From Candidatus Tabaqchalia intestinavium (GTDB taxonomy: Bacteria > Bacillota > Clostridia > Oscillospirales > CAJFTT01), in the NCBI GenBank assembly GCA_904420005.1, contig CAJFTT010000044.1, positions 41,766 through 105,765 of the forward strand: a stretch of DNA of 64,000 bases, written 5' to 3'. A program made the translations under genes and the position numbers. Every line of letters begins with the position of its first letter. Within the stretch, counting starts at the first letter, position 1. Positions 25,209-62,299 of the stretch are shown here, piece after piece. Below the pieces are notes generated by a model. The model saw nothing but the letters and a program-made list of their open reading frames with translations. It was not told where the DNA came from and did not search any database.

Positions 25209-25799
25209 ATGAAGGAACTGACCGCGCGGCAAAAGCGCGTGCTGGACTATCTCACCGCCCGCGCGGCGGAAGGCGTTTCCCCCACGGTGCGGGAGATCGG
25301 CGCGGCGCTGGGCATCGCGTCCACCTCCACCGTGTCGCGCGACCTGCGCGCGCTGCAGGAGCGCGGCTGCCTGACGAAAACCGGCCGCGTCAGCCGCGGG
25401 ATCTCCCTGCCGCTGCCGGCTGTCGCGCTGGTGCCGGTGTATGCCTATTACAACCCGGAAACGGGCGTCGGCAGCGGCCTGACGGGGGACCGGGTTCCCT
25501 TCCCCGCCCCGCGCGAGGCGCGGCCGGAATATTTCGCGCTGCGTCTGCCGGCCCCGGTGCGGGAGATCCCCGACGCGCAGGCGGGCGACGTGCTCGTGTT
25601 CGAGAAGCTGTACCGGGCGCGGCACGGACAGGTTGTCGCGGCTTCGGTGGGCGGCGTGCTCGTCGCGGGGGTGATGCAGCGGCAGGCGCGCGGCGCGTGG
25701 GTGCTTTCGGACGGCTGGCGGCATTCGCTGGCCGGCGAGGAGGACGTCGCGCTGGTCGGCGTGCGCGTGGGCCTGCTGCGGCAGTATCCGGCCGACTGA
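25209..25799 (+). CDS. LexA-like transcriptional regulator with degenerate (apparently non-catalytic) S24 domain
   Basis: The N-terminus MKELTARQKRVLDYLTARAAEGVSPTVREIGAALGIASTSTVSRDLRALQERG is a classic LexA DNA-binding domain. The C-terminal half aligns loosely to S24 but has no Ala-Gly site, no GDSM serine and no conserved Lys. Strong GGAGGG RBS. The track ORF from 23544 is a spurious extension. Confidence 0.7.
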   Translation: MKELTARQKRVLDYLTARAAEGVSPTVREIGAALGIASTSTVSRDLRALQERGCLTKTGRVSRGISLPLPAVALVPVYAYYNPETGVGSGLTGDRVPFPAPREARPEYFALRLPAPVREIPDAQAGDVLVFEKLYRARHGQVVAASVGGVLVAGVMQRQARGAWVLSDGWRHSLAGEEDVALVGVRVGLLRQYPAD

Positions 25800-26012: not shown

Positions 26013-26536
26013 AGGCAGGCGTGTGCCCGCACGCCCTGCTGCGGCCTTGCCTCACGTCCATTGCCGCTTGCCCCGGGCCTGGGATCCGGGCATCCGCGCG
26101 GATCGCTGACACCAAGCCCCTCGTCTGCCTTTTGCGCCGGGGGCTGTGAGGGAAGACCGCAGAGAAAGGCGCCCCTCCGTATCTGCCCTGCCTTTGCGGG
26201 AGTCCGTGGCGGATCGTAGGCCGTTGTGGAAGCCATGCAGGTACTTCCCTTTTCTGGCGCGAGGCCGTGGCCTTTGAGGCTATCCTGGAACCCAACGGCT
26301 CCTCCCGTGGGGAATTCAGGAGGCAAACGGGCGGCCGGCAGGGCGGACGCGGCAAGCAGACGCGCCCGGCGGGCGATCGGGGATCCCGCCGGCCTTCCCC
26401 GGCTCGGGGCAAGCCGGCGCATGGGTGCTTTCGGGCGGCTGGCGGCATTCGCTGGCCGCTGAGGAAAACACGGCTGCCGATTTGCCGCCGCCCAAGCCGC
26501 AATTCCCTTTGCCCACCGAGCCGGCCGCCTGCAAGA

Positions 26537-51121: not shown

Positions 51122-52717
51122 TTGCGGACTCGGTTCAAACGGTTGAGCGCGCTCGCCGCGGCGGCCGCCATGGTGGCGACGGCCGCGCTGACGACGGCTT
51201 GCCAGCGGCAACAGGAAGTGGACATCATGCAGCCGATCACCTTCCCGCTCGAGGAGCAGGTGACCCTGTCGTGGTGGTTCCCGTGGGACAATACCTACAC
51301 GCCGGAATATTCTACGGTAGGGGACCATCCCTTCATGCAGGAGTTGCAGGCACGCACAAACGTGCAGTTCGAATTCATCCATCCCACCTCGGCGGATTTC
51401 GGGCAGCAAAAGACAGAATATATGAACCAGCTGGCCGCCGGCAACATCCCCGACATGGTCACGCACGGCATTTATTTCCCCGACCACAGCGGCAGCACCA
51501 TCGACGGCGCGATTGACGACGGTATTTATATTCGTCTCAATGAACTGGTTGACGTGCATATGCCGAATTTCAAGACCATCCTCAATTCCAATTCCATTAT
51601 TTCCCGGCAGGTTTATACCGAGCAGGGCAATTTGATTTACATCCCGAAGATCCTGCTGTTCGACGTCAACGACAGCCTTCAAGGATCGGGCGGCCTCGTC
51701 ATCCGCAAAGATATGCTCGACGAGCTGCAGCTCGATGTGCCGGAGACAGTCGCCGACTGGTATAACGTGCTGACGCGGCTGAAGATTTCCGGCAGCGTGC
51801 CCTACCCGCTGGAATTCGGCGATATGCGTTTCGGCCCCTGGACGGGGCTGGCCTTCTTCACGGGCTACGGCACCTATAACAGCTATTACCTCGGCGACGA
51901 CGGCAAGATCCGCTTTGGTCTGCTGGACGATGCAATGCGTGATTACGTCCAGGAAATGGCCAAATGGAACGCCGAGGGTCTGCTCGCGCTGGAGTATTTC
52001 GACGAGACGGTGCGCGCCAGCGACGACGTGGCTGCCTGGGTGGGCGGTCCCGACGAGCTGGAGAGCCTGCCGCTCATCGCGCAAAACCCGAATTATGAGC
52101 TCATCGGGGTGAAATACCCCACGTTGGAGGCGGGCAAGGACATCGAGTTTCTCAGCACCTCCTATCCTCTGGGCTCGGATGTGTGGCGTAATCTGCTCAT
52201 CTCCGCGGATTGCCAGCGGCCGGACGTCGCGCTGGCCGTGATTGACCAGTTCTATACGGAAGAATCCTTCTACCGCACCTCTTACGGCGTGGAGGGCGAG
52301 GATTACACGATCGATGCGGACGGCAACGTGCAGTTCACCGACAAGATCAAGAACGATCCCGACGGCATGCGTTTCGCCATCGCCCACACTGCGTTCCTCG
52401 ATTCGTTCTGGTATGACTCGGAAGTGTTCCTCAAGTACACCTATTCCGAAAAGACGCAGGAATCCATCGAGCAGTGGGCGCGCGGCACGCGCGATCGTGT
52501 GGTGCCGTTCGGCAAGCTCACCGACGAGGAATCGGAGGCCATCGCGCAGCTGGGCGACCGCTACGGCACGCAGGTCGGCGGGCTCAACGGCTTCGTCCGC
52601 GGCGACCGGCCGATGACCGAATGGGATGCCTGGAAGCGTGATATGGCCGACGCGGGCGTGATGGATGAGCTCGCGATTTATCAGCAGGCCTACGACCGGT
52701 ATCTCGAGTCCATGTGA
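51122..52717 (+). CDS. Extracellular solute-binding lipoprotein (large family-1 sugar ABC SBP), no permease genes adjacent
   Basis: TTG start 9 nt after AAGGAGG. The signal peptide ends in lipobox LTTAC. About 530 aa, typical of large carbohydrate SBPs. The track ORF start at 50831 is an extension. Confidence 0.75.
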   Translation: MRTRFKRLSALAAAAAMVATAALTTACQRQQEVDIMQPITFPLEEQVTLSWWFPWDNTYTPEYSTVGDHPFMQELQARTNVQFEFIHPTSADFGQQKTEYMNQLAAGNIPDMVTHGIYFPDHSGSTIDGAIDDGIYIRLNELVDVHMPNFKTILNSNSIISRQVYTEQGNLIYIPKILLFDVNDSLQGSGGLVIRKDMLDELQLDVPETVADWYNVLTRLKISGSVPYPLEFGDMRFGPWTGLAFFTGYGTYNSYYLGDDGKIRFGLLDDAMRDYVQEMAKWNAEGLLALEYFDETVRASDDVAAWVGGPDELESLPLIAQNPNYELIGVKYPTLEAGKDIEFLSTSYPLGSDVWRNLLISADCQRPDVALAVIDQFYTEESFYRTSYGVEGEDYTIDADGNVQFTDKIKNDPDGMRFAIAHTAFLDSFWYDSEVFLKYTYSEKTQESIEQWARGTRDRVVPFGKLTDEESEAIAQLGDRYGTQVGGLNGFVRGDRPMTEWDAWKRDMADAGVMDELAIYQQAYDRYLESM

Positions 52718-52757
52718 CCGTGTGACGCCGGCGGCTGGCTTTCAAGCTTACGCAGGC

Positions 52758-52793
52758 GGCCCGGCGGGGGAATTCCCCGCCGGGCCGTTTTTC
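52758..52793 (+). terminator. Rho-independent terminator after the SBP gene
   Basis: Stem GGCCCGGCGGGG / CCCCGCCGGGCC with loop GAATT, followed by GTTTTTC. Confidence 0.75.
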
Positions 52794-52812
52794 TTGCCCC
52801 GCTTGCAGCCTG

Positions 52813-53096
52813 GACAAAAAAGCCTTTCGCCCCCAAGCGGGCGAAAGGCTTTCCCAACGCGGGCCGGCCGCGCAGCAGCATGAAAGGAGACGGCTTCGCC
52901 CGCCGGCCCGCGCGCATCCGGCCGGCGCAAACGCAGGCAACCAAAACGACAGAGCACGAAATACCGCCCCGCGCGCGTCCGGGCCGCGCTGATATTTTGG
53001 GGCCAAGGCAGTCCAGTATGGATGCCGCCCCGCGCTGCGCGGTCACTGCACGCCGCGGTAATACAGCCCGCGCGTATACGACGCAGGCGGGGTGGC
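52813..53096. repeat. Direct repeat copy 1 (about 284 bp) of the U32 peptidase 3' end plus its downstream region
   Basis: About 95% identical by eye to 57221-57509. It includes a minus-strand terminator (perfect stem AAAGCCTTTCGCCC / GGGCGAAAGGCTTT at 52819-52852, then TTTTTTGTC on the minus strand) and two CRISPR-like units. Confidence 0.85.
53043..53096 (-). pseudogene. Duplicated 3'-terminal fragment of the U32 peptidase gene
   Basis: Encodes ...TPPASYTRGLYYRGVQ*, identical to the C-terminus of the intact U32 gene ending at 57456. No upstream coding continuity. Confidence 0.7.
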
Positions 53097-53260
53097 ATAG
53101 AATCCCCGTCGGCGGCTGCCCCAGCCTCCTGGCGAATCGCGCGCAGAGGCCCTTCCTGAAAAGGCGGGCCGCCAGCGCCATCGCCCTAACGCGCATCCGG
53201 AATGGGCCGGCGGCGCGGCGATTCCGGCATGGCAGACACAGCGTGCGCCGGGCAAGCAGA

Positions 53261-53302
53261 GAAGAAGGGCCTTTCCCCCGCAAAGGGGAAAGACCCTTCT
53301 TC
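53261..53302 (-). terminator. Hairpin 16 nt downstream of the 53318 gene stop
   Basis: 18-bp stem GAAGAAGGGCCTTTCCCC / GGGGAAAGACCCTTCTTC with one mismatch. There is only a weak pyrimidine tract after it on the minus strand. Confidence 0.4.
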
Positions 53303-53317
53303 CGCGTGGTCCCCGCT

Positions 53318-53983
53318 TCAGCGGAAACGCAGCGCGAACCGGTTGACCGCCGCGCCCGCGCCGGCCAGCAGCAGGCCGAGCGCCAGCAGCGGCAGGTACG
53401 TCTCCAGCAGCAGCGGCAGCGTGAGGGGCGACGTGCGGATATACTGCAAGAACAGGCCGCCCGCATCCTGCGCCAGCAGGGCCAGCAGCGTATACGCCAG
53501 CGCGGCGAGCAGCGTGAGGATGATCGAGCCGGTCAAAAACGCCAGCAGGTAGACCAGCCCGAAATAGAACACGCTCACGCACAGCAGCCGGAAAAATTCC
53601 AGCTGCATCCCCGGCAGAACCGCCCCGCCAAGGCACAGCAGCAGCGCCGCGTTGAGCTGATACAGCACGAACAGCGCCAGCATATCCGGCAGCTTCCCCC
53701 TGCTGCGGCTGACGAACAGCAGCTCGTTGCCGTCGGCTTCGACATATTCGCGCAGTGTGAACAGCACCCACCATATGGAGAAAAACGGCACCAGATACTG
53801 CACAAACTCCAAAACATGAAAATACAGCGCCGAACCCAGCCCTTCCTGCCGATAGAACAGATAGCTGACAAACGGCAGCAGCACATTGAGCACCAGCGGC
53901 GGCGCCAGCGCCAGCGCGCGCAGGTTCTTCAGATGCAGCCACATCCGCCGCATGAGCAGCCTCACAGACCCCTGAGCGCGCAT
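53318..53983 (-). CDS. Polytopic membrane protein (ABC-2-permease-like), last gene of a 3-gene ABC cassette
   Basis: 221 aa with about 6 hydrophobic helices. It overlaps the stop of the upstream ABC ATPase gene by 22 nt. Confidence 0.6.
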   Translation of the reverse strand: MRAQGSVRLLMRRMWLHLKNLRALALAPPLVLNVLLPFVSYLFYRQEGLGSALYFHVLEFVQYLVPFFSIWWVLFTLREYVEADGNELLFVSRSRGKLPDMLALFVLYQLNAALLLCLGGAVLPGMQLEFFRLLCVSVFYFGLVYLLAFLTGSIILTLLAALAYTLLALLAQDAGGLFLQYIRTSPLTLPLLLETYLPLLALGLLLAGAGAAVNRFALRFR

Positions 53984-54807
53984 ATGTACCCGTCCTCCAG
54001 CGTCGCCTCCGCCGCAGGGAAGGCCTGCGGCTGCCCGGACAGCACCTTGAGCATGATCCGGCCGTCGGCTTCAAACTGATCCTGCACGACATAGTCCCCC
54101 TGCAGCCCGGCGGCGTCGGTCTGCGGCACAAGATAGGTTTTCCCCGCCGCCCGCCGGCGAAGGGCCTCGCTGGGGCCGGACGTCACGATGCGGCCGGCGT
54201 CGAGCACGACGACTGTGTCGCAGCTGGCCTCCACGTCGCTGACGATATGGGTGGAGATGAGAACCGTGCGGCCGGGCCGCACCTCGGCGATCACCCGCTT
54301 GAAGCGCAGGCGCTCCTCGGGGTCAAGCCCCGCCGTCGGTTCGTCGAAAATGAGGATCTCCGGGTCGCCCAGCAGCGCCTGCGCAATGCCCAGCCGGCGG
54401 ACCATCCCGCCGGACAGCGTGCGCACCTTGCTGTGCAGATGCTCGGAGAGATTGACCTGCGCCACACAGCGCTCAATATTTTCCCGCACGCCCGGCCCGC
54501 GCATTCCCTTGAGGTTGGCGAGCATCTCCAGCATTTCATACACGCGCAGCTCCCGGAACAGGCCGAATTTCTGCGGCAGATAGCCGATATGGCGCAGATA
54601 ATCGCGGTCATCCTGCACCGAAACGCCATTCAGCTGGACAGCGCCCGCCGGCACCGGGTAAAGCCGGGTCAGGCAGCGCATGAGCGTGGTTTTCCCCGCG
54701 CCGTTGGGGCCGAGCAGGCCGTAGACGCCTTCGTCAAAGCGGATGGACAGGTCGCGGAGAACGGTCTTTCTCCCAAAGCGTTTGTTGAGTCCCTGCACTG
54801 TCAGCAA
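53962..54807 (-). CDS. ABC transporter ATP-binding protein (ABC-2/DrrA-like)
   Basis: Walker A GPNGAGKTT, signature LSGGMVRRLGIAQAL, Walker B ILIFDEPTAGLDP. I place the start at TTG 54807, 5 nt after AGAAGGG. The track ORF to 55014 is an extension. Confidence 0.85.
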   Translation of the reverse strand: MLTVQGLNKRFGRKTVLRDLSIRFDEGVYGLLGPNGAGKTTLMRCLTRLYPVPAGAVQLNGVSVQDDRDYLRHIGYLPQKFGLFRELRVYEMLEMLANLKGMRGPGVRENIERCVAQVNLSEHLHSKVRTLSGGMVRRLGIAQALLGDPEILIFDEPTAGLDPEERLRFKRVIAEVRPGRTVLISTHIVSDVEASCDTVVVLDAGRIVTSGPSEALRRRAAGKTYLVPQTDAAGLQGDYVVQDQFEADGRIMLKVLSGQPQAFPAAEATLEDGYICALRGL

Positions 54808-54829
54808 AATATCCCTTCTTTCTCTTTGG

Positions 54830-56746
54830 TCAACAGAGGCCTTCGAGGAATTCCCGCGAATCGCGCCGGTCTGCGGCATCGGCAAGATAGGCGTCCACCC
54901 GCGCGAGCGCTTCTTCCTCGCCCAGCGTTTCCACCGCGGCCTGCAGCAGCATGGCCATGCCGGTTTCGCCCGTGCTTTGGTAGGCCGTTTGTTCCGCCGC
55001 CAGCCGGTTTTCAAAATTCTCCGGGTCGTCCCGATACGTTTTCAGCAGGTTGAACGCCTCCTGCTTCTGCGGCGCGATGAAGCTGCGCTCATAATACGAC
55101 GCCAGCCCGCGCAGCTGCATGCATACCAGCGTCCCGTCAGAATACAGATGGCACCGCGCGTGCAGCTCCATCTGGGCGCCGGGCAGGATCATGACTTTCC
55201 GGATTTCCCGGCCGTCGGTCTTCGACGCGAGGAATCCATTGAGGTCGGCCGCCAGCTGCTCCGGGCGGAACTGCTCGGTGTCCAGATAAGGGTAAACGAC
55301 CTGCACGCCGTTCACCGTCTCCTCGGTCAGGAACCCGGCGAGCAGCGTCACGCCGTCCGTCCGGCCCGCGAAGGTGTTGCGGCCCGTCTGCGGCAGGTCG
55401 CAGAAAACCGTTTTGCCGTACTGCACCCGCAGCGTGACGTCGACCGGCTGCTCCGTCAGCAGCTTGTAAAAGCTCTGGTTCTCCACGTCGTACAGCGCAT
55501 GGTAGCCGCTGTGCGGATAATACGCGAAATGCCCCGGCAGGTTGATCCCCTGCGCATGCGCGTAATACGTCGGGTTGTCGCCCGCATAGGTGAAGGTCAG
55601 GCTGTCCACGCGGCCCGCGGCGCCGTTCTCTACGGCGAGCGTGTCGCCCTGCTGCGTGAAGCGCAGCGGCGTGCCGTCCTGGTCCGTGACCTGCGAAACC
55701 TGATACCCGTGGTAGAGCGTGAATTTATAGCAGGGCAGGGCCGGCTGATCCACCTGCGCCGTCACGCGGGCCGACAGCTGCAGCCCGACCGTCAGGTCCA
55801 TGTCATAGCCCGTGACGGAAAAGCCGCCGTCCTCCTCCTTCTGCTCGGCAAACTGGTAATAATCCAGATCCCACACATACCCGCTGCGCGCGCTGCGGTC
55901 GCTCGCCGTCCTGGCCATCGGCAACAGATACACCGCCAGACTGCCCACGCACAGCACGGCGCAGGCCAGCGCCGCGGCGCGCCGCGCCCGCCGGCGGTCG
56001 CACAGCGTTTTCCACAGCACCGGGACGGCGAACAGCGCCAGCCAGAACACCGTCGCGCTGATGCGGTCGGGCAGCAGCGAATAGCCGACGCTGTGCTGCG
56101 GCAGGCTCTCCAGCCCCCGCGGGAACAGGCAGAGGAATTCATACACGGGGAACACGTCGATCCACAGCGCATAGTAGAGCGCCTGCGCCACATAAAGCGC
56201 CAGCGGGGAACCCAGCAGGATGAACAGCACCAGCACCAGACAGGCGGCGAACCGGTTGAGCGTCAGCGCCGCCGCCATACCCAACAGGATGCCGGCCAGA
56301 GAGACGAGGAAAATGTACAAAAGCACACAACCCAAAATATGCAGCACCGCCTCCGCGCGCCCAATTTGCAGCGCGAAGCAGGCATACGCATTATAGCCCG
56401 CCGCGACAAGCGTGAAAAGCAGATCCAGCGCGAGCAGCAGCAGGAACTGGCTGCCGTAAAGCCGGGGCAGGCCGTGCCGGGTCACCCGCGCGCACTCGAG
56501 CAGCGCGTCATGCCGCGGCTTATCGGCAAAATAATAGGAAACGAACGTGAAAAAGACGAAGCACAGCATCGACAGCGGCAGCGTCGCCCGCAGCATCGCG
56601 AGATCGCCAAGCAGCCGATCCCCCGGCAGGGTCCTCGCCTCGTCAAACAGGACGTAATGAAAGTAAAGAAAAAACAGGCCGGTAAAGGCCGGCAGGACCC
56701 AGTCCTTGCAAAACAGCCGGATCGTCAGCGACATCTGCCTGCGCAT
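54830..56746 (-). CDS. Large membrane protein: N-terminal multi-TM permease-like region fused to a soluble beta-rich domain
   Basis: 638 aa. About 8 TM helices lie in the first ~290 aa. The C-terminal ~340 aa recall the N-terminal beta domain of M1 aminopeptidase-type ABC permease fusions, but I see no HExxH. Confidence 0.55.
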   Translation of the reverse strand: MRRQMSLTIRLFCKDWVLPAFTGLFFLYFHYVLFDEARTLPGDRLLGDLAMLRATLPLSMLCFVFFTFVSYYFADKPRHDALLECARVTRHGLPRLYGSQFLLLLALDLLFTLVAAGYNAYACFALQIGRAEAVLHILGCVLLYIFLVSLAGILLGMAAALTLNRFAACLVLVLFILLGSPLALYVAQALYYALWIDVFPVYEFLCLFPRGLESLPQHSVGYSLLPDRISATVFWLALFAVPVLWKTLCDRRRARRAAALACAVLCVGSLAVYLLPMARTASDRSARSGYVWDLDYYQFAEQKEEDGGFSVTGYDMDLTVGLQLSARVTAQVDQPALPCYKFTLYHGYQVSQVTDQDGTPLRFTQQGDTLAVENGAAGRVDSLTFTYAGDNPTYYAHAQGINLPGHFAYYPHSGYHALYDVENQSFYKLLTEQPVDVTLRVQYGKTVFCDLPQTGRNTFAGRTDGVTLLAGFLTEETVNGVQVVYPYLDTEQFRPEQLAADLNGFLASKTDGREIRKVMILPGAQMELHARCHLYSDGTLVCMQLRGLASYYERSFIAPQKQEAFNLLKTYRDDPENFENRLAAEQTAYQSTGETGMAMLLQAAVETLGEEEALARVDAYLADAADRRDSREFLEGLC

Positions 56747-56945
56747 TGGCCCCTCCCCTTTCTGTATGCGGCGGCCTCCCTCGGCGAAAGGGAAGCCGCC
56801 GCTGTCTCTTATGGGTCCGAACAGATGCAGTTTTCACGCGGACACGGCGCGCCATACGCCGGAGCACCCGTTGTGACCAGCCGGCGATCCGGCCGTCCGC
56901 CCATACCCGCACTTATAGAAAAAAACGCACTAAACATGCATTGCT

Positions 56946-56974
56946 ATTGTACTATACCAAATCCTGCCTGTCAA
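56946..56974 (-). promoter_or_regulatory. Consensus sigma-70 promoter of the ABC cassette (minus strand)
   Basis: The minus strand reads TTGACA, 17-nt spacer, TACAAT. It lies in an AT-rich tract about 190 nt upstream of the ATG at 56746. Confidence 0.6.
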
Positions 56975-57220
56975 TATTTGTATTCTATTTCTGGTCAAAA
57001 AACCAGCATTAAAAAGTAACATCCTTGCTCAAGCGCCTGAAGATATGATATTTTTTTGAATGTAATTCCCAATTTCAGCTTCAAAAGCAGCATATTCCGC
57101 AAAAGGTTATTTGTAGAACCAAAATCCTCCGCCAGGATAGCGGGGCACGCAATTCTGCTCCCATATTTTCCAGCGCTTTTTAGCCCCCGGCAGAGCCGCG
57201 GGCAGGATCCTGCTCCAAGC

Positions 57221-57509
57221 GACAAAAAAGCCTTTCGCCCCCAAGCGGGCAAAAGGCTTTCCCAACGCGGGCCGGCCGCGCAGCAGCATGAAAAGGAGAC
57301 GGCTTCACCCGCCGGCCCGCGCGCATCCGGCCGGCGCAAACGCAGGTAACCAAAACGACAGAGCACAAAATGCCGCCCCGCGCGCGTCCGGGCCGCGCTG
57401 ATATTTTGGGTCCAAGGCAGTCCAGTATGGATGCCGCCCGCCCCGCGCTGCGCGGTCACTGCACGCCGCGGTAATACAGCCCGCGCGTATACGACGCGGG
57501 CGGGGTGGC
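57221..57509. repeat. Direct repeat copy 2 (about 289 bp): native 3' end of the U32 gene plus downstream region and terminator
   Basis: Matches 52813-53096. It contains the U32 stop at 57456 and the minus-strand terminator hairpin at 57227-57260. Confidence 0.85.
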
Positions 57510-59552
57510 GCCCGTCTCATACTGCGCGATGACGCGCGCCGCCTCCTGCGCGCTTTCTGTCGTGAAATACAACCGGCCGAAGCGCAGCCCCGCCGCGGCG
57601 AACGCCTCCAGCCGGTCGGCGAGGAACAGCGCGCGGCAGTTGAGCAGCTCGGCATAGCCGTGATGGCAGACAAGCGGGAAACGCTCTCCGCGCCGGTCGG
57701 TGAGGGCCTTCGGCCCGTCGCCCGCCCGGCAGCCGGCGCAGCCCGCCTCGCCGGAGAAGGGGCAATTGCGCAGCAGCATCGCGGGCAGCCGGCCATAGAC
57801 GATGGCCCCGCATTCGCCCTCGACGCAGTCGGCCAGCTGCGGCAGCGTCAGCTCAAACGACAGCAGCGCGCGCTCCAGTCCCATCGCGCGGTAAGCCCGC
57901 AGCGCGGCGAGGTTGACCAGATTGAGGCCGTAATCGCCGTCCGGCGCCAGTCCTGCGGCGCGCACGGCCTCAATCTGGCCGAGATTGCCGCAGACGGCGC
58001 GGGTCACGCCCAGCCCCGCGACGGCTTCCAGCGCCCGCGCCTGGCGCGCCGCGTCGGCCTCCCCGAGGCACAGCGGCGGCAGCTCGGCGGCGAGCGTGAC
58101 CCCCTGCGCCGCGAGCGCGCGCGTCTTTTCCGCCTCGCGGGCCAGCGCCTCGAGCGGAAGGAGCACCCGCGCGCCGGCTGGCAATGCATCCGGGACGCCG
58201 CGCCAGTCGGCGAAGCGATATTCCAGCGCAAGCGGCGCGGCTGCGCGTCCCTTTTCCGGCTTCGGGAGCGCAGCGTCCCGCCAGGGCCGGGACTGCGGCT
58301 GCGCCCGCCGGGCCTGCAAGGCTTCGAGCGCTTCCCGCCGCAGGGCGTTGAGCGCAGACAAACGCAGGGCGAGCCCGTCGTCCAGCGCGACCTGCATTTC
58401 CCGGGCAAAGAAGGGCGTGCCGCCCGTTTTCGCCAACGCCTCCCGCACGCGGCCGGGCTCGGTCGCCCGCTCGCGCGCCGGCTCCGGCGCTTCGCCCTCC
58501 GCCCGCGCGGCAAAGCCCGTCTCCCCATCCGTCGCCGTGAGGGCGACCGGCTCCCCCCGCCGCGCCGTCAGGGAGAAATCCACCGGAATGCGCGGCAGCT
58601 CGCCGCGCAGGTAGGTATTGACCTTGCCGAACGCCGCCTTCGCGCCGGCCGCGTCCTCCTCCCGGCGCACGCCGAACATCGTGCCGCCGCGCCGTCCCTC
58701 GAAATAGCCGTCGGTGAACCCCTGCCGGGAGAACACCGCGCGCAGCAGGGCCTGCTCCTCCTCGGTGATCTCCTCCCCGCGCAGCGCCTTGCGGCACAGC
58801 AACGTCGCCGCCGCGACATATTCCGGGCGTTTCATGCGTCCCTCGATCTTGCAGCTCGCGACGCCCAGCGCCGCCAGCTCCGGCAGCCGGCGCACGAGGG
58901 AGAGGTCCTTGAGGCTGAGCGCATGCTCGCGGCCGCCGGCGGAAAACGGCAGGCGGCAGGCCTGCGCGCACAGGCCGCGGTTGCCGCTGCGCCCGCCGAT
59001 GAGGGCGCTGAGATAGCACCGGCCGCTGACCGACATGCACAGCGCGCCGTGCACGAACACCTCCAGCTCCATCTCCGGCACGGCGGCGTGGATCTCCGCG
59101 ATCTCCGCCCGGCTGAGCTCCCGCGCCAGCACCACGCGGCGCATCCCCAGCGCGGCGGCCGCCCGCGCGCCCGCCGCGTTATGCACCGCCATCTGGGTGG
59201 ATGCGTGCAGCGGCAGCGACGGCGCGCGCTCGCGCACGCAGGCCGCGAGCCCCAGATCCTGCACGATCAGCCCGTCCACGCCGCACTCGGCGCACAGGCG
59301 CGCCAGGCGCAGCGCCTCCGGCAGCTCGCGCTGCCGCACGAGGGTATTGAGCGTAACAAAAAGCCGGACGCCCCTGCCATGGCAAAACGCCACCGTGTCC
59401 GGCAAATTCTGCGATGTGAAATTCTCCGCGCTGCGGCGCGCGTTGAAGCCCTCCAGGCCGAGATAGACCGCGTCTGCCCCCGCGCGCACCGCCGCCTGCA
59501 GCGAAGCGGGCCCGCCGGCCGGCGCGAGGATCTCCGGCCGCGCCGCCGTCAT
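57456..59552 (-). CDS. U32 family peptidase (long form)
   Basis: Starts MTAARPEILAPAGGPASLQAAVRAGADAVYLGLEGFNARRSAENF, a typical U32 N-terminus. ATGA overlap with the zapA stop. The track ORF to 60311 is an extension. Confidence 0.85.
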   Translation of the reverse strand: MTAARPEILAPAGGPASLQAAVRAGADAVYLGLEGFNARRSAENFTSQNLPDTVAFCHGRGVRLFVTLNTLVRQRELPEALRLARLCAECGVDGLIVQDLGLAACVRERAPSLPLHASTQMAVHNAAGARAAAALGMRRVVLARELSRAEIAEIHAAVPEMELEVFVHGALCMSVSGRCYLSALIGGRSGNRGLCAQACRLPFSAGGREHALSLKDLSLVRRLPELAALGVASCKIEGRMKRPEYVAAATLLCRKALRGEEITEEEQALLRAVFSRQGFTDGYFEGRRGGTMFGVRREEDAAGAKAAFGKVNTYLRGELPRIPVDFSLTARRGEPVALTATDGETGFAARAEGEAPEPARERATEPGRVREALAKTGGTPFFAREMQVALDDGLALRLSALNALRREALEALQARRAQPQSRPWRDAALPKPEKGRAAAPLALEYRFADWRGVPDALPAGARVLLPLEALAREAEKTRALAAQGVTLAAELPPLCLGEADAARQARALEAVAGLGVTRAVCGNLGQIEAVRAAGLAPDGDYGLNLVNLAALRAYRAMGLERALLSFELTLPQLADCVEGECGAIVYGRLPAMLLRNCPFSGEAGCAGCRAGDGPKALTDRRGERFPLVCHHGYAELLNCRALFLADRLEAFAAAGLRFGRLYFTTESAQEAARVIAQYETGATPPASYTRGLYYRGVQ

Positions 59553-59917
59553 TCGGAAACTTCGCCCAGGCGCGCGAGCTTGACCTTGAGCACCTGGATC
59601 TGCTGATTGAGGCGGTTGATCTCCCGCCGCGCCTCGTCGACCTCCATGCGGGCGCGCCCCGCTTCCTCGACATAGCCCTTGATCTGCGCGCGCAGGTTGT
59701 CCGCGCCGCTCTCCGCCTTCTTGCTGCGGTCGCAGAATTCCAGCGCCGCGAACACCGCCGCGACGGTCGTGGAAATCTGCTCGTTGGACTGCATCATTTT
59801 GGTGATGTACGCGTCGACCTCCTCGCCGATGCTGAGGATATAGGACGTCTCCTCGTCCGCGGACACGGCGTATTCCGCGCCGCCGATCACCATCGTCACG
59901 CGATTTTTCTCCTGCAT
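59549..59917 (-). CDS. zapA: Cell division protein ZapA
   Basis: NRVTMVIGGAEYAVSADEETSYI is followed by a C-terminal coiled coil. AGGAGG lies 9 nt upstream of the ATG at 59917. Confidence 0.8.
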   Translation of the reverse strand: MQEKNRVTMVIGGAEYAVSADEETSYILSIGEEVDAYITKMMQSNEQISTTVAAVFAALEFCDRSKKAESGADNLRAQIKGYVEEAGRARMEVDEARREINRLNQQIQVLKVKLARLGEVSE

Positions 59918-60180
59918 GCTGCGCATCCTCCTTGCTGCTATCATCAGCCCGCCGGGGCCATCCCCACGGGCGTTGTTTCTGTCTTTTATTATATACTGTT
60001 TTCCGGGGAAAGAAAAGAGGTATTTTTATCTTTTTCGACAGAATCGGGCGCCGGGCGGCGGCGTTATTTCCCCCTCCGGGCGGCCGGCGCGCAGCCTTGG
60101 GCAAAGGGCCGCTGCGCCCCGGCGGGCGCATCTCCGCGCCGCCGGGGCGGGCCGGCGGAACCGCATCCGGCGGCAAGCGG

Positions 60181-60390
60181 GCCGCAATCCCACGCGGGCG
60201 CGGGCAGGGGGAGCAGGCCCGGTCCGGGGAACGCACGGAAATCGCGCAAGCCCAAGCGGGCGGGCGCGCCTGGTGCTTTCCCCGCCCGGATGGAGGGAGG
60301 CGCAATCCCACACAGGCGGGGCAGGCCGCCGCTCCTCAAAGGCAAGTTTGCCCTCAACCGGCGCAATCCCGTACGGGCGGGGTGGGCTGC
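60181..60390. CRISPR. Degenerate CRISPR-like units upstream of the GNAT gene
   Basis: GCAATCCC-type units lie at 60184, 60245 (GCAAGCCC), 60302 and 60363, a spacing of 57-61 nt. Examples are GCGCAATCCCACACAGGCGGGGCAGG and GCGCAATCCCGTACGGGCGGGGTGGG. Confidence 0.4.
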
Positions 60391-61159: not shown

Positions 61160-61181
61160 AGCGTCCGGCGGGAAGCGGGCC

Positions 61182-61430
61182 GCAATCCCACGCGGGCGCG
61201 GGCAGGGGAGAAGCCGGCCTCGGCCCCTCGCTCCGGCGGCGGGCATGCGGCAGCCGGGCGGAACGCGGGATACCAAAGAGGGACGCCGTCTTCCTCCGGG
61301 CGTGCGCAATAGGATGCACGTGCCGGGCCAGCGCAGCGTGGCCAGGCCCACGCGGGCGTGGGCTAACGCTGCACGGCGCTCCATCCCCGGCAACACGTGG
61401 GGGTATTCCCCGGCAGCGCGGGCAAAACAT
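61182..61430. repeat. Degenerate CRISPR-like units downstream of the GNAT gene
   Basis: GCAATCCCACGCGGGCGCGGGCAG (61182) is identical to the unit at 60184. Weaker units follow, for example GGCCAGGCCCACGCGGGCGTGGGCT (61341) and TATTCCCCGGCAGCGCGGGCAAAAC (61404). Confidence 0.3.
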
Positions 61431-61597: not shown

Positions 61598-62299
61598 ATC
61601 TATAAATATTCAGTTTTTGACGGCCACCTGCTGAGCGGAGTTGATTGTTATAACGCCGCAGCGCGAAACGTCTTTACACACTGGGGCCGCTTCCAAATCA
61701 TTTGTGCAGATGCCGTCTGCACAAACGCACGCCTTCCTGCGCCGGGGCGCTTTGACCACGCTTTTCCACTCACCCCGTTGCGCGCAGAGGCGCTTATACC
61801 AGACGGTCGGGTGCGCACCCCGGCAGGGGCGGTTTACCTCTCCTTTCAGAGAGGGAGGCGGGCGGTCGGGCACCTATCCGTGCAAAGAAAGGACGCGCGC
61901 CCCAACCGGCGTCCACCGTCTCTTCTCTGGCGCCGCCAAGGCGGAGCAGGCCGCATATGTAGGCGACCGAGCGGCGTTTGGGCACGGTTGCGTTAACGCC
62001 AACAGCGCATATGGGGCAGGGGCAGCAGGCAGTTCCGGATATCCACCGGCTGTGCGCCGAGCGCGCATGGATGGGGAAGGGCAGCGCGCGGCGGTCATAT
62101 TCGCCGGCCAGGTGCCGGGTGCGCATAGGAAGACTTTTGCCGTCAAGGATAGTGGGATCCTTGTTAAGGCCGGGGATTGGGCGCACATGGTTGGGATAGC
62201 CTCCCCTTTGCCCGCTCCGGCGGCGGGCATGCGGCAGCCGGGCGGAACGCCGGCGCGGCGACCGAACCCGCTCCCTGGTCTGGCGCGCGGCCAGCAGGA

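Follow-up and report, generated by a model that had tools for sequence, protein, structure and literature searches.

A three-gene ABC transporter cassette behind a U32 peptidase gene of a chicken-gut bacterium: the probable scar of an old insertion

Introduction

How does a transporter cassette come to lie directly behind a housekeeping gene, with that gene left whole and its 3' end present twice? The question is raised by a locus of Candidatus Tabaqchalia intestinavium, an uncultured chicken-gut bacterium. The window, that is, the whole stretch of DNA analysed, comprises 64,000 nucleotides of contig CAJFTT010000044.1 (assembly GCA_904420005.1, positions 41,766 to 105,765), and positions are given in its own numbering. 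On the minus strand, the locus consists of zapA, a U32 peptidase gene, repeat copy 2, an AT-rich promoter segment (P), the genes for a 638-aa membrane protein, an ATP-binding cassette (ABC) ATPase and a small membrane protein of 211 or 221 aa, an untranslated tail (u), and repeat copy 1. These are followed directly by the terminator of a convergent gene for a lipoprotein similar to solute-binding proteins (SBP). The locus is present in sequencing runs from at least 10 studies.

The explanation favoured here, to which a probability of roughly 60% is assigned, is that a single old insertion, by Campbell-type single-crossover integration, left the locus as a scar that is now fixed and inherited vertically. 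A preliminary description, made from the sequence alone, had proposed either a cassette inserted at the 3' end of the U32 gene with reconstitution of that end, or a unit poised for excision by recombination between the repeats. The former is supported by the intact U32 frame and the dead 17-codon copy at the far end, whereas the latter is not supported, in view of the lack of any empty site in the runs surveyed, the co-divergence of the cassette with the genome, and the decay of copy 1. As a structure, the locus adds one more example to a known kind, and its cargo belongs to a large uncharacterised family. The locus is a clean natural example of a small cargo stitched behind a housekeeping gene without damage.

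The repeat pair and the intact U32 gene

The cassette is flanked by two direct repeats, both on the minus strand. Copy 1 (52813..53096, 284 nt) and copy 2 (57221..57509, 289 nt) align end to end with 95.8% identity over 289 columns (E = 3e-135), in full agreement with the near-identical repeats of about 285 bp first proposed. They differ by 7 substitutions (6 transitions and 1 transversion; G/A three times, A/G twice, C/T and G/T once each) and by 2 indels of 1 and 4 nt. Identity falls abruptly to background at either border, and the pair is the sole direct repeat longer than 60 nt across the whole window. Moreover, the mismatches are not adenine-specific and no reverse transcriptase is encoded among the neighbours, so the pair is not that of a diversity-generating retroelement, as had been stated beforehand.

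Copy 2 represents the genuine 3' end of an intact gene for a 698-aa U32 family peptidase (57456..59552, minus strand; Pfam Peptidase_U32 8e-72, DUF3656 1e-20). A 698-aa protein from an independent sample (P0017) is 99% identical to the window U32 protein. The copy contains the last 17 codons of the gene, about 195 nt of 3' untranslated region (UTR), and a terminator made of a hairpin and a T-run, and it is contiguous with U32 in three other assemblies (L087, L089, L090). Two parts can be distinguished in it, with a border set by the strains that diverge there: part A (57427-57509), with the final 17 codons, the stop codon and a further 26-30 nt, and part B (57221-57426), which takes in the spacer of the 3' UTR and the terminator, its hairpin (57227-57260) and T-run. 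Copy 1, an orphan, was recognised by alignment and by its alleles in other strains. It codes for ...ATPPASYTRGLYYRGVQ* with no gene preceding, and is made up of part A' (53017-53096), with the 17 dead codons and the stop, and part B' (52813-53016), with the spacer and a terminator hairpin (52819-52852) that now ends the cassette transcript. No residual U32 similarity was detected in the 221 nt upstream of copy 1 (local score 24 vs 20.9 +/- 2.9 for shuffles). The preliminary assignment of copy 2 as the true gene end and of copy 1 as an orphan fragment with the same terminator is thus confirmed by sequence and alignment. For annotation, this means that neither the orphan fragment of 17 codons nor the second terminator should be taken for a gene or for the boundary of a mobile element.

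Some finer features of the repeats were also recorded. Each copy contains two internal 22-nt direct repeats (CCCGCGCGCRTCCGGSCSGCGC) 61 nt apart, at 52907-52928 and 52968-52989 in copy 1 and at 57316-57337 and 57377-57398 in copy 2. Copy 2 of the window has a 4-nt CCGC insertion of its own at 57434-57437. In runs X1 and X9, copy 2 carries about 20-30 additional nt (…CCGCCGCCCGGGGAGGGCCAC…) straight after the U32 stop, at the equivalent of 57452-57455.

Recovery of the junctions in independent assemblies

Since the window contig is metagenome-assembled, the duplication might be suspected of being an artefact of assembly or a two-strain chimera, and a same-strain ENA scaffold (L090) does jump to unrelated DNA inside the 638-aa gene. 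However, the copies differ at 9 sites, which argues against a collapsed or duplicated repeat, and all four junctions of the structure recur in independent runs of several studies, in Logan as well as ENA assemblies. The independent material consisted of L086 and L087 (one Logan sample), L089 and L090 (ENA), and the Logan contigs of X1, X3, X9, X11, X12, X15, X18 and X26. The junction between the SBP flank and copy 1 is also found in X1 and X18, that between copy 1 and the 3' region of the cassette in X18, X12 and X26, that between the promoter and copy 2 in L086, L090, X9, X11 and X15, and that between copy 2 and U32 in L087, L089, L090 and X3. Furthermore, a single 5.5-kb contig of X1 ties together the SBP gene, the terminator, the cassette and the beginning of copy 2. 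The artefact explanation, a possibility already considered in the preliminary description, is effectively refuted by these data, and its probability is close to nil. The nearest U32 homologue is at most 53% identical, and the best match in GTDB representative genomes reaches only 49%, so no syntenic outgroup is available.

The scaffold L090 (1734-3136) shows 100% identity to the window from U32 to about codon 156 of the 638-aa gene and then passes into unrelated DNA of 52% GC with an AraC-type regulator gene, the junction corresponding to window position 56281. Contigs of X1-X3 cross this breakpoint unbroken, so the junction in L090 lacks support; a contig of X4 begins at 56283. L090 is probably a scaffold chimera, or possibly a rare rearrangement.

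Distribution of the cassette and decay of copy 1

The presence of the cassette in strains was surveyed in the contigs of 19 distinct runs placed on the locus, it being understood that contigs drop rare variants. Wherever a run has the flanks, it has the cassette too, and, among the runs listed for both, the shares of cassette and flank words go in parallel. Neither an empty site (SBP-R-U32, where R denotes one repeat) nor a circle junction (u-R-P) was present in any contig. The strains with a single repeat copy and no cassette that the preliminary description had envisaged were therefore not encountered in these runs, and neither were circular junctions or deletion alleles of the cassette. Between X1 and the window, 39 of 4265 positions differ in the cassette, 10 of 1492 in U32 and 33 of 1167 in the SBP gene; the cassette has therefore diverged together with the genome. 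One contig, from X18, in which the SBP flank is joined to a copy-2-like repeat, was considered as an empty site and rejected, because copy-2-like bases occur in copy 1 itself in some strains, as is seen in a contig of X26 anchored in u.

Copy 1 is polymorphic among strains. It occurs in a window type (H1) and in a copy-2-like type (H2), a pattern that fits a donor/recipient mosaic or gene conversion. Additionally, it is being shortened by deletions. Copy 1 of X15 has lost 61 nt (52906-52965) between the internal 22-nt repeats. In X1 and L086, larger deletions of about 301-305 nt (52866/70-53170/74) have removed the orphan codons, the spacer and 68-78 nt of u, with junctions that differ slightly inside one imperfect 15-nt repeat (GCGGGCCG[G/C]C[C/A]GCGC). 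Both larger deletions retain the terminator hairpin, which suggests that the terminator is the only part of copy 1 still useful. The cassette is fixed in all sampled strains and copy 1 is eroding, and the strains with full, 61-nt-deleted and ~301-305-nt-deleted forms of copy 1 provide a time series of the decay of a duplicate. This outcome comes near to the situation that the preliminary description had regarded as unfavourable to its proposal, in that all sampled strains carry the cassette and no empty site is found, but the two copies are not equally preserved.

The breakpoint behind the U32 stop codon

Part A, with its 17 codons and 26-30 nt, is common to all strains, and its border with part B is a recurrent breakpoint. 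In X7/X8, X12 and X13, all from one study, the true U32 end is followed by an unrelated sequence, X, from 30 nt past the stop. The remainder of copy 2 and P have no coverage in these strains, and a copy-1-type orphan joined to u (u-A'-B') is present. A 96%-identical strain, L088, diverges 4 nt from the X point into a third sequence, Y. Thus, after the U32 stop and 26-30 nt (window 57426-57430, L088:1762-1794), the window continues with B, X7/X8/X12 with 'TTTGTGATATACGTGTGGTTGTTAATGTAA', and L088 with 'GGGGTAAGAGAACGAAAAATTCACAAACGAGAC'. The A/B border, which lies beside the palindrome CCGCGCAGCGCGG, may be a hotspot of integration or recombination. Sequences X and Y gave no match, with just 30-33 nt of each being read. 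Exact-pattern scans of the GTDB genome and JGI metagenome collections returned 0 matches for the repeat core and for X, and a scan of viral contigs returned 0 for X. Exact-protein look-ups of the 638-aa protein, zapA and the 69-aa U32 tail gave no match.

Origin of the structure

According to the Campbell-type scheme, a foreign unit of about 4.1 kb (P-C-u), composed of the AT-rich promoter (P), the three ABC-transporter genes (C) and the 3' tail (u), would have entered between the convergent U32 and SBP genes. The 285-bp segment R, made up of the final 17 codons of U32, its 3' UTR and its terminator, would have been duplicated in the course of insertion. Circular DNA carrying the cassette and one R would have recombined once with the chromosomal R to yield U32-R-P-C-u-R'-SBP. 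In this way, U32 would have stayed intact and kept its own terminator in copy 2, and copy 1, standing at the native position by the SBP terminator, would now serve just as the terminator of the cassette. The observed arrangement corresponds to this product: one chromosomal segment stands in direct duplication on both sides of the insert, with copy 2 adjoining U32 and copy 1 adjoining the SBP terminator, and the SBP gene is natively the right-hand neighbour of the U32 terminator. The cassette is regarded as an inserted unit because its relatives occupy unrelated contexts and never lie beside U32. We infer a circular intermediate and a single crossover, mediated by RecA rather than by a site-specific recombinase. 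The Campbell route is preferred because the repeat is long, covers non-coding DNA not needed by a site-specific core, and is accompanied by no recombinase. The likeness to integration of the Campbell type, as with suicide and integrative plasmids or in lambda style, lies in the direct duplication of a shared segment around the insert, the continuity of one copy with each native flank, the intact target gene, and the reversibility, in principle, by recombination between the repeats. In contrast to such systems, there is here no circular donor, replication gene or recombinase, and the event is old, with one copy eroding.

Several observations weigh against this scheme. Neither a donor circle nor an empty site was observed in the contigs, nor was a donor/recipient mosaic, so the route of integration is read from the end product. 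The GC content of the cassette (64%, vs a window mean of 64.8%) is no mark of foreignness. In the X-type strains, the repeated stretch is just A, about 79 nt, which fits a site-specific event of the att type at least equally well, and the divergence of L088 into Y, so close to the X point, counts on the same side.

In another explanation, the cassette would be a decayed site-specific element. Cis-mobilizable elements (CIMEs) are decayed remnants that derive from integrative and conjugative elements (ICEs) or integrative and mobilizable elements (IMEs) flanked by attL and attR (Guedon et al. 2017, PMC5704250). Part A would then be attB, the repeats attL and attR, and the cassette an ICE/IME remnant with its integrase lost or acting in trans and with accretion at the same site. 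Direct repeats that take in the target gene's 3' end, together with the lack of an integrase and of transfer genes, agree with the definition of a CIME (PMC5704250). Three sequences (B, X and Y) abut U32 within 4 nt of one point, X-type strains keep u-A'-B' with a repeat of A alone, and the variable neighbour in some strains recalls accretion. In addition, the ICE-like contig L092 encodes a distant relative of the large subunit along with a relaxase and a serine recombinase, but ICE/IME ancestry is not demonstrated for the cassette itself. However, the repeat of the window runs for 285 nt through the 3' UTR and terminator, much longer than a typical att core, and is explained by homologous recombination. 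Moreover, no integrase lies within 10 kb, no cognate integrase is known, and no empty attB, cassette-free allele or excision product was seen in any run. The 30-33 nt read of X and Y match nothing, and conservation that ends just past a stop codon may merely mark the end of selection. This origin is considered unlikely, although the A-only repeat of the X-type strains and the common breakpoint keep it under consideration.

An insertion that required no circle is somewhat less plausible still. Linear foreign DNA might have been joined by microhomology at two chromosomal points 285 bp apart, for example on sister chromosomes or at a fork, and the interval thereby duplicated in the manner of a very large target-site duplication, or R might have been tandemly duplicated first and the cassette have landed between its copies. 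The end product would be the same as that of a Campbell event, neither terminal inverted repeats nor a recombinase are present, and the GC-rich region is prone to microhomology rearrangement, as the ~301-305-nt deletions at the imperfect 15-nt repeat and the 61-nt deletion at the 22-nt repeats illustrate. Nevertheless, this route calls for two illegitimate joins made in concert or for an insertion that hit the junction of a duplication exactly, either of which is rarer than one homologous crossover, and the borders of the insert show no convincing microhomology. As to an active unit of excision or phase variation, direct repeats of 285 bp with 96% identity are an adequate substrate for RecA, which could regularly remove and re-insert the cassette and so maintain mixed populations; the copy-2 bases in copy 1 of X26 and X18, at the diagnostic sites covered, would fit gene conversion. 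Rare RecA excision between the repeats is mechanically possible, but neither empty-site nor circle contigs were found in the 19 runs, the sole candidate (X18) is explained as the copy 1 of that strain, and copy 1 is being lost in strains that keep the cassette. Regular excision is accordingly very improbable. Finally, a transposon or insertion sequence with target-site duplication finds no counterpart here, as no inverted repeat joins the ends of the insert and no transposase is present; a duplication of 285 bp is also far larger than known target-site duplications.

Genes and proteins of the cassette

Reading on the minus strand from copy 2, the cassette begins with P (56747..57220, 474 nt), an AT-rich leader of 47-51% GC delimited by GC content and promoter scan. 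The sigma-70-type promoter at 56974-56946, TTGACA-17-TACAAT, agrees with the consensus at 11 of 12 positions and confirms the minus-strand promoter noted earlier in this AT-rich tract; it is followed by a 5' UTR of about 190 nt. A strong hairpin (GCGGCGGCTTCCCT...AGGGAGGCCGCCGC, 56770-56805, minus strand) lies just upstream of the ribosome-binding site of the 638-aa gene and has no T-run; it may be a regulatory leader. At the other end, u (53097..53317, minus strand) is the last part of the insert, a 221-nt 3' untranslated tail with a GC-rich hairpin (53245-53316), and the same junction between u and A' is seen in X12, X18 and X26. The three genes between P and u are those given in the preliminary description.

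The first gene (54830..56746, minus strand) encodes the 638-aa membrane protein, which has no sequence match in Pfam, NCBIfam or PDB. Its AlphaFold model (pLDDT 78) comprises an N-terminal multi-helix membrane domain of about 280 aa and a C-terminal domain of about 340 aa resembling M1 aminopeptidases. In a Foldseek search with this model, the best match was 6a8z (M1, E = 5e-9), 85 PDB chains were matched at E <= 1e-3, and all 50 best matches listed were M1 enzymes. Neither the HExxH(+E) zinc site nor the GxMEN exopeptidase motif occurs in the 638-aa protein or in 12 relatives (13 family members). The model thus points to a C-terminal domain that is a dead peptidase fold and not a catalytic member of M1, plausibly a binding module. 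The protein, earlier termed a permease fusion, matches no model of the ABC2_membrane type. By profile search, the family comprises 1059 clusters at 50% identity, nearly all of 620-670 aa. Nothing relevant on permeases with a fused M1-like domain turned up in a literature search.

The second gene (53962..54807, minus strand, TTG start) encodes a 281-aa ABC ATPase (Pfam ABC_tran 1.9e-29, above cut-off). Its best NCBIfam matches are GldA (188.6 bits), PQQ_ABC_ATP (177.1 bits), DrrA (170 bits) and NodI, all under the curated cut-offs, and by sequence the ATPase appears closest to the ABC-2 exporter group GldA/DrrA/NodI. The third gene is a 221-aa open reading frame (ORF; 53318..53983, minus strand) for a small polytopic membrane protein with about 5-6 hydrophobic segments, in which gene callers place the start at ATG 53953, for a product of 211 aa. 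L081-L086 and L091 have it conserved as their third gene. It has no match in Pfam or NCBIfam, and is presumed to be a second permease subunit.

Relatives of the cassette and possible function

The three-gene unit is conserved in other bacteria, each time in different surroundings. In L081 it occupies a different chromosomal site (51% identity). In L082-L085 (47% identity) it lies on plasmid-like contigs with Rep3, resolvase, ParE and transposase genes, adjoining an agr-type quorum-sensing module of agrB, agrD-like, LytTR and histidine-kinase genes. In L091 it stands directly after a tRNA-Pro(CGG) gene and has no flanking repeats. In L092, a homologue of the large subunit alone (31% identity) is found beside genes for a relaxase, MobC/NikA, a primase and a large serine recombinase; no ABC ATPase gene was detected next to it, the neighbouring 300-aa protein having no ABC_tran match, so the unit of three genes is not shown for L092. 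Among the relatives found, none is adjacent to U32, and GTDB representative genomes contain no relative of the cassette protein. The cassette family is thus shown to be foreign and mobile in nature.

In L081 and L083-85, the gene immediately upstream of the unit codes for a protein of 131-136 aa with a signal peptide (mature form about 110 aa), which is 52% identical between the two contexts. In L082 (4844-5254), the secreted-protein gene is split into two ORFs, and in L091 (5560-5936) only its last ~51 codons are left, immediately behind tRNA-Pro(CGG). Damage to or loss of the presumed toxin gene has thus occurred more than once, with the ABC genes kept. The corresponding position in L092 is taken by an unrelated secreted protein of 126 aa. 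The window contains no trace of the secreted-protein gene, and since this gene is present upstream in closer relatives, the pump of the window is read as an orphan.

The cargo may accordingly be described as a putative ABC-2-type exporter or immunity pump, the large subunit of which would display an inactive M1-peptidase-like domain outside the membrane. In the window, it would act as an orphan export or immunity pump, probably protective against a related secreted toxin from other bacteria. Two points speak against this assignment: the suggested function is drawn from gene neighbourhood and predicted fold only, and the secreted protein of the relatives matches no known family, including the known bacteriocin families. 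Among the ABC-2 (type V) exporters DrrAB, NodIJ and GldAFG, the ATPase of the cassette appears most similar to GldA, DrrA and NodI, with scores below their cut-offs, and the permease subunits are likewise separate polytopic proteins. Unlike in those systems, the permeases match no ABC2_membrane model, and the large subunit has an M1-peptidase-like ectodomain without HExxH and GxMEN.

The lactococcin 972 cluster offers another comparison, as it consists of a secreted bacteriocin and a putative two-gene ABC immunity transporter, with a large membrane protein and an ATPase (PMC4055356). The relatives of the cassette have a similar order (small Sec-signal protein, membrane protein of about 640 aa, ABC ATPase), and they occur on plasmids or mobile elements, in one case with an adjoining agr-type regulator. 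Like orphan immunity ('immune mimicry') genes, the window holds the transporter genes only. However, the cassette ATPase scores 110 bits vs a cut-off of 254.85 for TIGR03608, the large protein matches no NCBIfam model (TIGR01654 included if in the library), and the secreted protein has no NCBIfam or Pfam match. The topology also differs, with the transmembrane domain first and the extracellular domain second, and there is an extra small permease gene. By every membership test applied, the cassette falls outside the lactococcin 972 family.

A wider proposal is put forward only tentatively and is more doubtful than not. The cassette could be the immunity/export half, now orphaned, of a widespread and as yet undescribed system of about 1,000 sequence clusters, in which a secreted protein toxin of about 110 aa would be handled by an ABC-2 pump, with the dead M1-aminopeptidase domain of its large subunit as the ectodomain that binds the toxin. 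At the same time, the final 79 nt of the U32 transcription unit could be a recurrent attachment point for different elements in different strains. If such a toxin/immunity system exists, orphan copies would mark resistance within the chicken-gut community. The cargo is the more useful lead and merits a functional test: its family is large, is covered by no model of Pfam or NCBIfam, and has members on plasmids and integrative elements.

Neighbouring genes and minor sequence features

Upstream of U32 lies zapA (59549..59917, minus strand; 122 aa, Pfam ZapA 3.7e-16), a gene also called in L087/L089, the stop codon of which overlaps the U32 start by 4 nt. Within 10 kb are found a thiamine operon and genes for an acyltransferase, a histidine phosphatase, a GNAT protein and a DUF4340 protein. 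No integrase, transposase or reverse transcriptase is encoded in the cassette or among the neighbours within about 10 kb, and the absence of an integrase and a transposase from the cassette, stated in the preliminary description, extends to these surroundings. Rfam returned just two sub-threshold matches to miRNA models, on hairpins; RNA folding of the 3' UTR was unremarkable (z = -1.33), and PADLOC returned generic P-loop similarity only.

On the other side, the convergent SBP-like lipoprotein gene (51122..52717, plus strand, 531 aa) is an ORF with a lipobox and has one homologue with PF01547; a search with the protein returned the window's own protein alone. A terminator hairpin of its own can be read from the sequence at about 52757-52797. 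The GC content of the gene (52-64%) is below that of the neighbouring genes. Synonymous-looking single-nucleotide polymorphisms with 3-nt periodicity are clustered at 51823-51898 and 52417-52495 in X1, X7 and X14 against a near-identical background, which suggests short recombination tracts.

Repeats of other kinds were also noted in the window. Two families of GC-rich intergenic repeats of 41-48 nt (96-98% identical) surround the GNAT gene, at 60163-60210 and 61161-61208 and at 61229-61269 and 62213-62253, and a related motif occurs upstream of zapA; these repeats resemble repetitive extragenic palindromic (REP)-like elements. Farther away, a 51-nt direct repeat with 92% identity is located at 25691-25741 and 26415-26465, its copies being 724 nt apart.

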